Below, piece by piece: positions 58,601 to 64,000 of a stretch of 64,000 nt of DNA. Source of the stretch: an uncultured Bacteroidales bacterium (GTDB lineage: Bacteria > Bacteroidota > Bacteroidia > Bacteroidales > WCHB1-69); the NCBI GenBank assembly GCA_900315705.1, contig ONAB01000002.1, positions 124,399 through 188,398 on the forward strand, in the 5' to 3' direction. Position numbers: made by a program. Positions within the stretch are counted from its first letter, which is position 1. The number at the start of each line of letters is the position of its first letter.

Positions 58601-61600
58601 CGGCACCATCGTCTCCCTGTGCGTCATTCTGGGCATCCTCTCCCTGAGCATCGTTATCTCACTGCTCTTTCCGAAGAAGAGAGTTGAGGCGTAAGACTTG
58701 AGACTGAAGACGTAAGACTTGAGACTGAAGACTGAAGACTTGAGACGTTATTTTCGCAAATCGCAAATCGTAAATCGCAAATCGCAAATCGTCACTCCGG
58801 ATCAATGCAGAACCGGTAGGGACGGAGGGCGTCCTCGCCGGCGTAGTCCACACCAATGCGTGGGGTAATCAGGATTTTATCTTCAGGGATTACAACTCCC
58901 CGGTCTTCCAGCCAGATGGTATTGCCGTCGAGCGGGGTGCCGTTGTCGGCCACCGTAAGGCCCAGCGCCTTGCAGAGCTTGCCCGGCCCGTCGGTCAATG
59001 CAGGGCTCACGACGGGCTTGCCCGTGCGCTGCAGCATCAGCTCGCCGCCGTGGGTGGGCACAATGCCGCGCACCAGCACGGCGTCGGGCACGTCCTCCTC
59101 ATTGGTGACGAAATTCAGCATCGAGTGCATCCCGTAGCAGAGGAACATATAGACCACTCCGCCCTCGTGGTACATCATCTCGTTGCGGCGCGTGCGACGG
59201 CCGCCGTAGGCGTGCGAGGCGCGGTCGCCCACCCCGTTATAGGCCTCCACCTCGGAGATGATGCCGCCCGCCAACTGCCCGTCTTTCATTGTGAAAAGAT
59301 ATTTGCCCAGCAGGTCGCGCGCGATGGACACCACATCGTGTTGTAAAAAATACGATTTTTGCAGCCGATTCATAAGATGAATTTTTCGGCAAAAAAACAA
59401 AAAAAATGCATTCGGACTGCAACATTTTTTCGCCAAATTCGTCTTATCTATTGTCTTTGTATGGTAACGAAAGAAGAACAAAAACTGATAGACGGATGCA
59501 TTCAAGGAAAAACTGAAAGCCAAAAGCAGTTGTTTCTTGAATATGGTCCCCTTGTCAAAGGGATTTGCCAGCGTTATGCGACCAGTCCCGAAGAGGGCGA
59601 GGATATGTTCCACGACGTCTTCGTCTTCATTCTGACCCATTTCAAGGACTACAATAAAATCACCTCGCTCAAGGGATGGATTTATCGGATAGCCATCAAC
59701 AAGGCGGTGGATCACTATCGGAAGAGCCGAGCCGCCAAGTTCACCCCCATCGAGAACGAGGATTTTGTGGTCAGCGCCCCACAGACGCCGATTCCGGAGG
59801 TGCTCACGATGGACCAGCTGGTGGCGTTCATCAACGAACTGCCCGACCGGCAGCGGACCGCCTTCAACCTGTTTGCGATTGACGGCTACCCGCAGGAGGA
59901 GGTTGGAAAGATGATCGGCGAAACGCCCAACAACGTGCGCACCCTGGTCTTCCGGGCCAAGAAGCGCCTGCAAACACGCATTCGGAACTACCTCAACCAC
60001 GAGGAGTTTGAACTATAACGACAGATAACAATAACGAAGAAAGAGATACAATGAATCTGAAAGAAAAATTCGAGAACTACACGCAGCCCGTGGACGAATC
60101 CGGCTGGGAGTCCATCGCCAACGACCCCGCACTGGTGCGCTACAACCGCGGGCGGCTCGTACGCCGCATCTGCGGATACGGCATCCCCGCCCTTGTTGTC
60201 ACGGCCGTCGTGACAACAGCCCTCTTCATACTCGGGGCACAGCACCGGGCAATGCCGAAGGATCCCGCCGTCACCCCGGCGGCTGTCTCCACCCCGACGG
60301 CACCCACCTCGACAGAAGTTGCGGTCCCGACAACGGTCACCGCACCCGCACCCTCCACGGCTACCATTCCCGCCACTGCCGCGCCCGTGACGGAGAGCAC
60401 CCCCAGCAGCAAGGCCGCTGGCGTCTCCACCCCTCAAGTCGCCCCCGTCCCGCAAGTGGCAACCGTTCCCGTCAGCGCTGCTTCGAACCCGACTCCGGCA
60501 ACGTCTCCTGTTGCTGCAACGACTCCCGTCCCCAAGAGTGTCGCCACCCCGAAGAGCAGTTCTCCCGTCACCACGCAACCCGCCACACCCGTGACCGTGA
60601 CGGTTCCCGACGAGGCCAAGAACGCTGAATCCGACACGCCCGAGGAGCCCGTTTCCGAATACGAGTTTTACATTCCCAACGCCTTCACGCCCAATGGCGA
60701 CGGCATCAACGACTTGCTCTATTTCAAGGCCAACTTCGAGCCCCGCACCTTCGAGGTCGCCATCTACAACCGCCGTGGCGAGCAGGTGTTCCACACTCGC
60801 ACTATGGAGATTGGCTGGGACGGCAACTTCCAAGGCCGTGAACTCCCCGGCGAGGTCTATACTTACGTCATCAAATACACCGATCCCGACAACAAAGTTC
60901 TCAGTCGCCGCGGACAAGTAATCATCATCCGATAAAGCAACGCACGATGGCCTTTCTTGACAGAAGCACGCCCCCCGCACCATATCCCGTCACAGACATC
61001 ACGCTGACCGCCCCGAGACGACACGTTCTCCCCAACGGCATCCCGCTCTTCGTCATCGACAACCCCTCGCTGGACCTCATCCACCTGACCGTCGAAGTGG
61101 GTGCCGGCGCGCTGCACGAAACCCCAAAGCACGTGCTCTCCTTCGCTTACTTGCTGCTCAAGGAGAGCTCGCCCAAGCACAGCGCCACCGAAATGGACGG
61201 ACTGCTGGACTTCTACGGCGCCACCTGCAGCGTCAGCGTCACCTTGGAGAGCATCAAAATCAAAATCACCTTCCCCAAGAAGAATGTCGCCGACATCCTG
61301 CCCTCCATTTTCGAGTTCCTCTCCACGCCACACTATCGCGAAGAGAATCTTGCCCTTTACAAAAGCAGGAGAGTGAAAGACCTGGAATACAACTCGCAAA
61401 AGACGAACGTGCGCTGCTCACAATTGGCGAAAAACGCCCTATTCGGCAATAAAATGGCCGCAGGCCAATTCTCCACCAGAGAAAATCTGATGGCGGTCAC
61501 CATCCCGCAGATGGAACAAAGCCATCGGGAGACCTTCTGTGCCGAGAACATACGGATGTTTGCCACGGGCAACTTCGACACAGAACTGGAAAATTGCATC

Positions 61601-64000
61601 AGCCAGCTGTTTGAGCAAATACCGCACGGAAAGCGCGCCGCCGAGATTCGTGACCTCGCCCTGTTCGAAGGGGTCAGTTCCCCCGTCTTCGAACAAATGC
61701 CCGACAGCGTGCAATCATCCATAATGATTTGCCGCACCGGACCGGGCTACTGCGACGAGCAACGCCGTCCGCTCACCATCCTCTCCACCCTCACAGGGGG
61801 CTATTTCAGTTCCCGTCTGATGCAACGTCTGCGCGAGAAGGATGGCTTCACCTACGGCGTGTATTCCGACCTCACCTATTTCGGCAACCAATCGCTCTTC
61901 TCCATCAGCAGCGACGTGAACGTGCAGCACACCCAAGCGGCCATAGATGCCTGTTTCGAGGAGTTGGACCGCCTCTGTCGCGAGCCGATTCCCGACGAGG
62001 AGGTGGAGATGGTGAAGCACTATATAGAGGGAAGTCTCTTGCGCCGCGTGGAAAACTCAGTCTCCTACCTGAAACAATACGATGACTGGCAGAGTTACGG
62101 CCTTGATGAAAGGGAATTCCAAAGTATGTTGCAGCAGGTGAACGATATCACTGCGGAAGAGTTGATGGATTTGGCAAAAATATTCTTCGAACACAATAAA
62201 TTCACCCAAATCATCGTTGGTAATATTTTGTAACAGGAAAAAGAGATGCGGAAACTCCTCACATTTATAGCGTTGGCGATATGGACCTTCGGCGTGGCAT
62301 TTGCGTATGAGCCGCCGACGCTGCAGTGTCTGCAACTCAACGACGCCACCCATCTGCACGTTACGTGGAGCAACTCCGCCGACTGCAGCCATTTCACCGC
62401 ATACGATTTCTATGTGAACGGAGTCTTCAGCGAGACCTTCACACCCAGCGGCACCTACACGCTGTGCAACTACAGCGGCCGCGACGTGCTGGTCGGCCCG
62501 GCCACCAACTACTCCTGCTACATTGTCGCCCACGACGAAAACGGCGGCACGTGGACCTCCAACACGCTGCAGATGCCCCAGCTGACCGTCACCGTCAACA
62601 CCGACAGCTCCCTGATTTACCTCAACTGGGAGTCACCCTCGTCAGGGTCGCTCGGCGGCACGTGGGGCAGTGTCTTCCAGATTTTCAAGCGCCGCTACTA
62701 CGAGAGCGAGTTCCCGCAGCTGCCCTTCGCCACCGTTCCCAACACCGTGACCTCCTACACCGACACTGCCGATGTATGCCGTAACGAGATTTTCTACCGC
62801 GTCAATATCAGCAACCGCTACCAGATCGGAGACTCGCTGTACTCCACTTGTCCTTTCTCCACCTTCATCAAGTCGGCGGTGGTAATCGACCGGCAGCAGC
62901 CAAACACTCCTATTCTGGACAGTGTGACGGTGGATGAGCAGAACCGCGTGGCCCTGGGGTTCCACGCCCCCGACTCCGCAATGGCCGGTTACATCGCCTA
63001 CTATGAGGGCAACAACGGCTGGGAGCCCATCGACACCATTTTCAACACCCACTATTGGATTGACCCCAACGGCGACGAGCGCTGCTACCGCCTCGCCGTG
63101 CTCGACTCGTGCTACAACTGCTCCTCGATGACGACCGACCAGCAGTGCAACCTCAACATCTACGTCAACCAGACCGACGCGTGCAACAAGACCGTCTCTT
63201 TGAGTTGGAGCACCTACCCCAACCTTCAGGGCGGCATTGGCGATTACGAGCTCTTCCTCAGCACCGACCACGGCGCCACCTATCAGAGCATCGCTACAGT
63301 CACAGGCAACAACTACACCCTCACCGGTTTGGCGTTGAACACCCCGTACCGGGTTTTCGTGCGGGTGCACAACACCAGCCATACCGTCTCTGCATCCAGC
63401 AAACGCAAGGACTTCATCCTGGAATCCACGGCTTCCGAGGACTTCACCTATATCCGTTCTGTGTCGGTCATTGACAACCATCACATTGAGGTGCTGACGC
63501 ACACCAGCGGCGATTCATTGCCGTTCACGGAAATTTACTTGCAGCGCAGCGACAACGGCACGGACTTCTCCACTATAGCCACGCTGCCCCACCACGCCGC
63601 CAGCGGCTACACCTTCACGGACGCCTCCGCCGACTTCAACCGGCGCACCTATTTCTACCGCACCTGCGTGCTCAACAGCTGCAACACCGAGGGCGGGTAC
63701 TCCAACATCGCGCATAACATCTTACTGCAGGGCGAGGCCACCACGGCCCAAGAGAATGTGCTGCAATGGAGCAACTACGGCAGCGGTCCCGCCGACGTGC
63801 AACAATACCAGATCTCCCGCAAGATGGAGTTCGAGCCCACGTTCAACGAGATGCCCGACATCATCTCCCCGTCCAGCATCAATATGTACCACGACGACGT
63901 GGCGGCACTGTTCAGTGAAGGATCCAAGTTCACCTACTTTGTGACAGCCTACTTACCCACTGATGAATACGGATTCAACGACATCAGCTTCTCCAACCAG

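Follow-up and report, generated by a model that had tools for sequence, protein, structure and literature searches.

A sigma factor cassette of a rumen-type Bacteroidales bacterium whose putative anti-sigma partner ends in a type IX secretion sorting domain

Gene layout, promoter and recurrence of the cassette

The window that we analysed is a stretch of 64,000 nucleotides from a rumen-type Bacteroidales bacterium, and the cassette described here lies at its 3' end. The first-pass annotation had listed four plus-strand genes separated by gaps of 32, 11 and 12 nt, a layout that stands (59461-60018, 60051-60935, 60947-62233 and 62246 onward). [quoted passage not shown] The genes past the cargo gene are on the opposite strand and the unit therefore consists of exactly four genes. 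Its features are the following.

59418..59445, + strand: ECF-type promoter TGCAAC-N16-CGTC (TGCAACATTTTTTCGCCAAATTCGTCTT), conserved across 7 cassettes
59461..60018, + strand: ECF sigma factor, 185 aa (Sigma70_r2, Sigma70_r4_2, TIGR02937)
60051..60167, + strand: partner residues 1-39, putative sigma-binding module (motif FENYTQPVDESGWESI, then a basic stretch)
60168..60239, + strand: partner residues 40-63, single TM helix (ICGYGIPALVVTAVVTTALFILGA), predicted N-in / C-out (uncharged segment, AF2)
60240..60662, + strand: partner residues 64-204, predicted disordered periplasmic tether rich in Pro, Thr, Ala, Val and Ser (pLDDT, composition)
60663..60935, + strand: partner residues 205-294 and stop, T9SS type B sorting domain, CHU_C / TIGR04131 (Pfam, NCBIfam, AF2)
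60947..62233, + strand: M16B-like protein, 428 aa, with neither zinc motif nor signal peptide (Peptidase_M16_C, 4.8e-32)
62246..64000, + strand: cassette cargo, first 585 of 682 codons, with signal peptide and FN3-like repeats; its C-terminal domain (CTD) lies beyond the window

The same four-gene order was found in six loci from other genomes or assemblies (L014, L020, L023, L133, L135 and L137; a further locus, L134, repeats L133 and was left out of the count). Because it recurs in this way, the order is not a product of chance. The cassette proteins are 29-54% identical between loci and, in one case (L137), the cassette has been kept despite different flanking genes. A terminator scan gave no plus-strand match inside or after the operon and was uninformative. 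Near the cassette no PorP/SprF gene was found; a minus-strand ORF downstream of it (303/336 aa) was considered as such a gene and rejected, having no Pfam match. The three PorP/SprF genes of this genome sit on contigs C20 and C31; SprA and GldM are present as well, and there are 24 CHU_C proteins set against these components.

The first gene is, as annotated at first pass, an ECF sigma factor (Sigma70_r2 8e-14, Sigma70_r4_2 2e-13, TIGR02937 2.6e-26). Its promoter occupies part of the 87 nt that separate the sigma gene from the divergently oriented mpg, and the end of its -10 element is 17 nt 5' of the ATG. As the promoter lies 3' of the TTG at 59359, the alternative start codon, we favour the ATG at 59461. 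In all six further loci these -35 and -10 blocks recur 34-48 nt 5' of the sigma start, L135 having a variant with an N17 spacer and CGTT as -10, and although these blocks match, the spacers between them are unrelated among cassettes. The cassette promoters of five genomes (that of the window included) were combined into a matrix in which the spacer was ignored; with it, the best-ranked sites in this genome were the promoter of the cassette itself and, next, two others. Of these two, one (C46:1441) is 17 nt 5' of a gene for a secreted protein; the other (C20:88018) is 71 nt 5' of the gene for a 688-aa type A T9SS cargo, and 13 of its 16 spacer positions are identical to those of the cassette promoter. 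In three genomes of the same genus there is no orthologue of this type A cargo gene that would have allowed a footprint of the latter site. The predicted regulon amounts to two or three sites in one genome. Judging from these promoter sequences, the sigma factor probably also acts on other genes for secreted proteins, one or two at the least, and one of these codes for a type A cargo.

The third protein had been described as an M16 fold devoid of HxxEH, which agrees with what we found (Peptidase_M16_C 4.8e-32, motif absent). Its nearest PDB relatives are M16B chains designated inactive domain or subunit (3gwb, 3amj_B), and none of 118 homologues carries HxxEH or a hydrophobic N-terminus. In the three homologue contexts that were inspected the neighbourhood was the same cassette, and judged from sequence the M16B-like protein is a dedicated cassette member.

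The fourth gene was at first taken to code for a giant surface protein. The full ORF (L011:3645-5693) has instead 682 codons and ends at window-equivalent position 64294. The other expectations for this protein were borne out: it contains FN3-like repeats (fn3 3.5e-8), 14 of its residues are Cys (2.1%), and it does carry a type B CTD beyond the window (CHU_C at residues 596-679, 3e-9). Its signal peptide is ordinary (MRKLLTFIALAIWTFGVAFA, with cleavage after AFA at residue 20). Orthologues with 34-49% identity occupy the same cassette position in L023, L133, L135 and L137, and in all five cassettes compared (these four and the window) the PNAFTPNGDGxND block of the cargo is degenerate.

Architecture and family of the sigma factor partner

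The product of the second gene begins with 39 residues, N-terminal to the helix, that carry a conserved P-x-W-x-x-I motif, present as P-x(3-6)-W-x2-[ILVM] in 136 of 145 family members. These approximately 40 pre-helix residues are the best-conserved part of the partner outside the CTD, being 68-96% identical in close orthologues while the linker drifts. The AF2 model places helices at residues 3-8 and 16-23, with a confidence of only 65-73 over residues 1-40. By analogy with the Dma proteins discussed below, residues 1-39 are a putative sigma-binding (anti-sigma) module.

The single TM segment after a short N-terminus reported at first pass corresponds to 24 uncharged residues (40-63), within a continuous helix that AF2 extends over residues 26-65. 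In the family (145 members) the median start of the hydrophobic segment is residue 45 (range 32-62) and its median length 21. There are on average 5.1 Lys and Arg in the 15 residues before the segment against 1.6 after it, a positive-inside bias that predicts an N-in topology. No conserved AxA or small-x-small cleavage site was found after the helix in the aligned orthologues. By the position and length of the segment and the lack of a conserved site, the partner departs from the cleavable Sec signal peptide of type B cargo.

The Pro/Thr/Ala-rich linker that follows has the composition first described (P 19%, T 18%, A 18%, V 14%, S 11%), whereas its length, given then as about 130 aa, was measured as 141 aa. 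AF2 assigns pLDDT values below 50 to residues 64-197. Linker sequence is not conserved among partner orthologues; the median length of the linker in the family is 146 aa, and every member has at least 125 aa. No passenger domain was detected in the partner, solely this disordered stretch between the helix and the CTD.

The C-terminus proved to be a type B T9SS domain, as had been recognized from the sequence. CHU_C, the only Pfam match in the partner, covers residues 208-281 (1.3e-16, 61 bits against a cut-off of 27) and TIGR04131 also matches (7.3e-16, 58.1 bits against a curated cut-off of 35); against both curated models the partner CTD equals or beats true cargo CTDs. The blocks that are conserved in the 22 other CHU_C domains of the genome are present in it too, except for the Trp of the RWG block, a residue that varies among cargo CTDs as well. 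AF2 predicts a small beta-sandwich of about 90 residues (pLDDT 82-92), and in a fold search no PDB structure matched the partner model at E <= 0.001, the relatives listed being generic Ig-like sandwiches only. The notion that this domain was copied from the cassette cargo was discarded: when the CHU_C domains of the genome are ranked as matches to the partner, the cargo CTD comes only 11th, and its first block is degenerate.

Among the best 150 representatives (50% identity clusters), 144 matched over their full length with the same layout and, where named, they are called only gliding-motility C-terminal-domain proteins. The same genome encodes a second sigma/partner pair (G000:C12:218363-219850), whose partner likewise has the N-terminal motif, a TM helix, a linker and a CHU_C domain. 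We did not find a description of this sigma/partner architecture in the literature searched. A narrow N-terminal profile (A1) matched only five other genomes of the order, and the survey of motif genes was carried out with a broader one (A4) in a sample of 401 Bacteroidota genomes. The co-occurrence with sigma genes, which the first-pass annotation had proposed to survey, was evident there, with 45 of 46 inspected motif genes 3' of an ECF sigma gene. At least nine of the 46 end in OMP_b-brl_2, that is, they have the Dma architecture, and the motif module is joined on its C-terminal side to the barrel, to a short tail (about 250 aa), to PKD plus CHU_C or to nothing at all. The N-terminal profile of the CHU_C partners retrieves the barrel-type partners beside ECF sigma genes, the similarity being a short motif with per-genome E-values from 1e-4 to 1e-12. 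A scan of the genome contigs with the full-length alignment, the pattern of which came from the CTD, gave ordinary cargo at 78 of 80 loci. It served as a control: just 2 of 96 CHU_C genes in these loci, drawn by similarity to the partner CTD, follow a sigma gene.

In the sigma tree, the window sigma falls in a clade (94/92) of sigma factors paired with partners that have the same N-terminal motif, barrel-type partners among them, and four of the five other ECF sigma factors included from this genome lie outside it. The tree does not resolve within the clade, so that a single origin of the CHU_C-type partners is not supported, and one or several origins are both possible.

Comparison with known systems

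In the Dma type, a sigma factor of group ECF21 adjoins a protein in which some 40 N-terminal residues that bind the sigma are followed by a TM helix, a disordered region and an eight-stranded OMP_b-brl_2 barrel, and binding of the sigma factor Das1 has been demonstrated for residues 1-40 of Dma1 (PMC10927553). Like Dma, the window partner is encoded directly 3' of a Bacteroidota ECF sigma gene (here with a gap of 32 nt), has a short cytoplasmic N-terminus, a single TM helix and, in the periplasm, a long disordered region, and ends in a folded domain aimed at the outer membrane. It differs from Dma in that a T9SS type B sorting domain stands in place of the barrel, so that contact with the outer membrane would go via a secretion machine and not by BAM-type insertion, and in that the output appears to be T9SS cargo whereas in Dma it is vesiculation.

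A T9SS CTD protein also feeds secretion information to an ECF sigma factor in the PorA - PorXY - SigP pathway of Porphyromonas gingivalis (PMC7712824; PMC12152298). PorA is, in contrast to the partner, a secreted cargo that signals via a two-component system, with neither TM anchor nor direct sigma contact, and SigP controls genes for T9SS components. The FecI/FecR/FecA system and the ECF/anti-sigma/SusC-like trios of Bacteroidota share with the proposed circuit a relay across the envelope, in which an outer-membrane protein acts on an ECF sigma by way of the periplasmic part of a single-pass anti-sigma factor. However, no FecR domain (PF04773) was matched in the partner at E up to 0.1, the cassette contains no gene for a TonB-dependent transducer, and the sensor end of the window partner is a secretion signal. 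Type B cargo of the SprB type, which works with PorP/SprF shuttles (PMC12618676, PMC9143113), shares the TIGR04131 C-terminal domain found in the partner, which nonetheless has no cleavable signal peptide, passenger domain or adjacent shuttle gene, and has a conserved cytoplasmic segment.

Possible roles of the partner and their significance

The reading that we prefer, and consider probable, is that the partner is a Dma-type single-pass inner-membrane anti-sigma factor in which a type B domain has replaced the barrel and from which the release of sigma is linked to secretion. The first approximately 40 residues would hold the neighbouring sigma factor at the cytoplasmic face, as in Dma, the one N-in helix would be the anchor in the inner membrane, and the disordered tether, at least 125 residues long, would span the periplasm. 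At the outer membrane the type B domain could then engage the T9SS, where its contact would most likely be either the SprA translocon or a shuttle of the PorP/SprF type, and the state of this contact would decide on the cleavage of the tether and helix and hence on sigma release. The T9SS crosses the outer membrane only and the partner is anchored, and for that reason release would need proteolysis. Once freed, sigma would read the TGCAAC-N16-CGTC promoter of its own four-gene cassette and probably similar promoters elsewhere, in front of one or more likely two or more other genes for secreted proteins. The presence of this conserved promoter 5' of other secreted or T9SS cargo genes fits the output of the proposed circuit. 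One guess is that the M16-like protein pairs with the genome's one active M16B protein and handles the short anti-sigma peptide that is released. In this manner the cell may tie the output of secreted surface proteins to the state of the secretion machine.

A precedent for such logic is the FlgM / sigma-28 checkpoint, where the anti-sigma factor has a signal for export by the very machine whose late substrates are under the control of its sigma, although FlgM is soluble and exported whole from the cytoplasm whereas the window partner is anchored in the inner membrane. We advance only tentatively, as a possibility we would not call probable, that the partner works as an equivalent T9SS checkpoint. 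It would be a tethered type B substrate or decoy: free PorP/SprF shuttles or an idle translocon would seize its CTD, the tether would be cleaved, sigma would activate the cargo genes, and the inactive M16 protein would be a dedicated cytoplasmic handler of the freed anti-sigma peptide of 40-60 residues. Type B shuttles have been reported to be scarce and limiting (PMC12618676). The absence of a PorP/SprF gene near the cassette is an objection to the preferred reading. Another is that the known T9SS substrates are, to our knowledge, free periplasmic proteins; one tethered to the inner membrane might block the translocon, or the translocon might never take hold of it.

There are other explanations. 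The partner could be an anti-sigma factor whose CHU_C domain is just a periplasmic sensor or anchor and has no contact with the T9SS; as in ordinary ECF systems, a beta-sandwich would have been co-opted to sense envelope stress or a ligand. The motif module is combined with many C-terminal ends, which suggests free domain shuffling, and both the lack of a nearby PorP/SprF gene and the merely generic Ig-like matches of the fold search point the same way. We nevertheless find this unlikely: the partner CTD matches the curated models at least as well as cargo CTDs do, retains nearly all conserved blocks (the Trp of RWG aside) and in every case forms the very end of the protein, where a sorting signal has to be, and the cassette and predicted regulon consist of T9SS cargo. 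Very improbable, in our view, is that it is an ordinary type B cargo or small surface stalk with a long cleaved signal peptide and an incidental sigma neighbour. The first-pass annotation had weighed such a cargo against an anchored sigma partner; the latter is supported by architecture, synteny and Dma homology, and the former is disfavoured because the helix is long and late, the charge bias is N-in, no AxA site follows and the pre-helix residues are conserved in common with other sigma partners. Certainly the CTD is canonical, the LGA-Q after the helix of the window protein could be a signal peptidase site, and cargo is the normal use of the domain, given that only 2 of the 96 CHU_C genes sampled by CTD similarity follow a sigma gene. 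Against this, each of the 145 members has the start of its hydrophobic segment between residues 32 and 62 (median length 21), there is no conserved small-x-small site after it, the conserved pre-helix region is found in sigma partners devoid of the CTD, the protein has only a disordered linker where a passenger would be, and a sigma gene adjoins in every context seen.

It would also be quite improbable that the protein is a structural trans-envelope tether which anchors the cassette surface protein or a PorP-like complex to the inner membrane and is co-expressed with sigma without regulating it. The linker, never shorter than 125 residues, is long enough for the periplasm and type B CTDs stay PorP-bound for surface anchorage (PMC9143113). 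Yet the cytoplasmic motif is specific to genes 3' of ECF sigma genes (45 of 46), and the Dma-type barrel proteins that the motif profile retrieves bind sigma through residues 1-40.

Apart from PorXY-SigP, described in one species, little is known of how Bacteroidota adjust T9SS cargo production to secretion capacity. If the sensing end of an anti-sigma factor is the secretion signal itself, a single polypeptide would link the machine to transcription and, if the checkpoint is true, cargo transcription would follow the capacity for secretion and anchoring. The Dma concept of an envelope-spanning anti-sigma factor would extend to a second route to the outer membrane, and at least 144 sequence clusters now called gliding motility-associated C-terminal domain proteins would be re-annotated as regulators.

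The four-gene cassette and its conservation

At the 3' end of the window (C22:124399-188398) we find a compact cassette of four genes, preceded by a putative promoter. The first-pass annotation had described the number, strand and spacing of these genes (gaps of 32, 11 and 12 nt), the ECF sigma factor, the partner with a type B T9SS C-terminal domain (CTD), the M16 fold lacking HxxEH and the Cys-rich, FN3-like nature of the fourth product, all of which agrees with the ORF coordinates and domain matches:

59418-59445, + strand: TGCAAC-N16-CGTC, in the 87-nt spacer from the divergent gene mpg to the sigma ATG
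59461-60018, + strand: gene 1, ECF sigma factor (domain matches)
60051-60935, + strand: gene 2, partner, 294 aa; CHU_C 1.3e-16 at residues 208-281, TIGR04131 7.3e-16
60947-62233, + strand: gene 3, M16-like protein; Peptidase_M16_C 4.8e-32, without HxxEH
62246 onward, past the window end, + strand: gene 4, cargo; full contig ORF of 682 aa

Both sorting-domain scores of the partner exceed the curated cut-offs. The description of gene 4 as a giant surface protein did not hold, as the complete ORF has only 682 aa; its features include an ordinary signal peptide, an FN3 match and 14 Cys, and beyond the window it does end, as had been suspected, in a CHU_C domain of its own (residues 596-679). The genes that follow lie on the opposite strand, so the unit consists of four genes. 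Just upstream of the cassette, the first reading of the sequence had also noticed a heptamer-repeat spacer (window 58681-58792) between a TerC-family gene and mpg.

The same order (sigma factor, CHU_C partner, M16-like protein, FN3/CHU_C cargo) is present in two congeneric genomes (L014, L020), in a Bacteroidales MAG from horse faeces (L023, 29-41% identity) and in three metagenome contigs (L133, L135, L137) found via M16 homologues with 45-54% identity; in L137 the flanking genes differ. Conservation within the cassette is highest for the M16-like protein. Neither HxxEH nor a hydrophobic N-terminus was found in any of its 118 homologues, and inactive M16B subunits are its closest relatives of known structure. 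The sole other M16 protein of the genome (window 4342-5568, minus strand; C22:128740-129966; 408 aa) carries HFVEH at residue 46, lacks a signal peptide, and could be the active partner of this inactive M16B-like subunit.

Layout of the partner and its family

The only hydrophobic stretch of the partner comprises 24 uncharged residues (40-63). RYNRGRLVRR stands before it, and after it comes a 141-aa linker rich in Pro, Thr, Ala, Val and Ser. In an AF2 model based on a small alignment, residues 3-8, 16-23 and 26-65 are predicted as helices and residues 205-294, confidently, as a beta-sandwich, while residues 64-197 are modelled without confidence. One alternative already considered in the first-pass annotation was that the helix is a cleaved signal and the protein just another cargo. 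The type B CTD is what such a cargo would carry, and yet the position of the segment (residues 40-63), the lack of a conserved small-x-small site after the helix among orthologues and the near invariance of residues 1-45 in close orthologues, where the linker drifts, all speak against it, and we disfavour the reading of the partner as an ordinary cargo.

With a family profile built from nine full-length members, a search of 1.84 billion representatives clustered at 50% identity gave 248 matches at E <= 1e-30. Among the best 150, 144 have 270-530 aa, a Met start, a hydrophobic peak at residues 30-66 and an end-to-end match. Where they are named, members appear only as [quoted passage not shown], from Bacteroidales MAGs. 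In another Bacteroidales MAG (L077) the partner has 526 aa and an extra PKD-like domain.

Features shared by 145 family members
Uncharged segment, first residue: median 45, range 32-62
Uncharged segment, length: median 21 residues
Charge around the segment: 5.1 Lys+Arg in the 15 residues before it, 1.6 in the 15 after
P-x(3-6)-W-x2-[ILVM] motif: 136/145 members
Linker length: median 146 aa, minimum at least 125 aa

Pairing with ECF sigma genes and likeness to Dma

A survey of the sigma/partner co-occurrence across Bacteroidota had been proposed. A profile of the first 60-70 residues of the CHU_C proteins matched 77 of 401 Bacteroidota genomes, and in 45 of the 46 loci inspected an ECF sigma homologue (25-34% identity to that of the window) directly precedes the motif-bearing gene on the same strand, the flank of the one exception being too short to tell. 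In the sigma tree the sigma factors of motif-bearing partners form one clade (support 94/92) that leaves out four of the five other ECF sigma factors of the genome; inside it, those associated with CHU_C do not resolve as a single group. The C-terminal ends of the 46 partners vary, with at least nine OMP_b-brl_2 barrels, two CHU_C domains (genomes G656 and G385) and the rest short or without assignment. L016 and L018 are loci with barrel-ended partners.

Such a barrel is the defining feature of Dma, the published envelope-spanning type of anti-sigma factor. In Dma1 the N-terminal region is followed by a TM helix, and a long disordered region leads to an outer-membrane barrel of eight strands; its residues 1-40 are enough for pull-down of the ECF21 sigma factor Das1 (PMC10927553). 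Compared with this layout, the window partner has every architectural feature of Dma save the defining barrel, in whose place it carries the type B sorting domain. The best reading is thus a Dma-like putative anti-sigma factor that ends in a T9SS sorting domain. Our literature search found no paper that describes an anti-sigma factor bearing a type B CTD, the nearest published systems being Dma and PorA-PorXY-SigP (PMC7712824).

The genome holds related arrangements. A second sigma/partner pair (C12:218363-219850; L012:6364-7851, minus strand) consists of a gene for a 184-aa ECF sigma factor abutting that for a 310-aa protein with the N-terminal motif of the partner (MNELKDILNHYTQEPPAGSWERL), a helix at about residues 57-80, an acidic, Pro-rich linker and CHU_C (2e-21). 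Flanked by a DUF4837 gene and a convergent mutS, it has no M16 or cargo gene, and TGCAAC-N16-CGTC is absent from its upstream region. The closest sigma paralogue (L022, C21:136743-137896; 32% identity) is followed by a 169-aa protein that combines a partner-type N-terminal motif and a TM helix with a Pro/Ala/Glu-rich tail; neither a folded C-terminal domain nor a Pfam match was found in this protein. Finally, in four ORFs of 340-451 aa (C45:21521-24270, C21:68028-70640, C38:13967-15799, C31:25688-28009) an ECF sigma factor takes up the first ca. 170 residues. A secreted protein is encoded after every one of them, and two of the secreted proteins end barrel-like (...GVGYEF). These ORFs may represent the fused Dma3-like type that PMC10927553 mentions.

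Promoter, sorting domain and possible coupling to secretion

L014, L020, L023, L133 and L137 share both promoter blocks, 34-48 nt upstream of the sigma start, and L135 has them as N17/CGTT; the spacers between the blocks differ among cassettes. A matrix restricted to the two blocks was derived from the cassette promoters of this and four further genomes. Its highest-ranking sites in the genome, after the cassette's own promoter, are C46:1441 and C20:88018. The former lies 17 nt ahead of a secreted-protein gene cut by the contig end (gene C46:1-1395; site and gene, C46:1-1441), the latter 71 nt ahead of a gene (C20:88118-90184; site and gene, C20:88018-90184) whose 688-aa product carries a type A sorting domain (TIGR04183, scoring above its cut-off). 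The spacer of the C20 site is identical to that of the window promoter at 13 of 16 positions. A weaker promoter-like site lies ahead of the gene for a 703-aa type B cargo (C24:71474-73585; site and gene, C24:71474-73699). Orthologues of the C20 gene for footprinting were not found in three genomes of the same genus. The conserved cassette promoter and these sites make a putative autoregulated operon likely and, from this one genome, suggest a regulon of secreted or T9SS cargo, with the C20 type A cargo, the C46 secreted protein and the C24 type B cargo as candidate members.

Judged by its sequence, the CTD of the partner is a genuine type B sorting domain. It outscores the CTD of the cassette cargo against both curated models and, compared with 24 CHU_C domains of the genome, retains the PNAFTPNGDGxND, GWDG, Y-x-Y and C-terminal blocks, its sole block change being the replaced Trp of RWG (RRG), a position also variable among cargo.

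The type B domain of the cassette cargo (L011:5430-5693, on the contig stretch holding the full gene 4; tails in L023, L133, L135 and L137) has lost NGDGxND from its first block in all five cassettes compared, and the partner CTD is not a copy of its neighbour's; this cargo may use a different shuttle, or none. Two contig ends (C46:3775-4164 and C11:132428-133024) carry identical CHU_C-encoding 3' gene ends in differing contexts, perhaps a repeat that broke the assembly.

SprA, GldM and three PorP/SprF genes (C20:176858, C31:44051, C20:78979) are encoded in the genome, none of the latter near the cassette. Going beyond the observations and direct predictions, namely the partner's layout, its N-terminal conservation, its strict pairing with sigma genes, the genuine CTD, and the conserved cassette and promoter, we propose that, by analogy with Dma1, the N-terminus would sequester the sigma factor and that the CTD would contact a PorP/SprF-type shuttle or SprA, a contact that would govern the proteolytic release of the sigma factor. 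PorP/SprF shuttles are reported to be required by type B cargo and to be scarce and limiting (PMC12618676), so that a tethered decoy CTD could report free shuttle capacity, and a coupling of this putative sigma/partner circuit to secretion is plausible.
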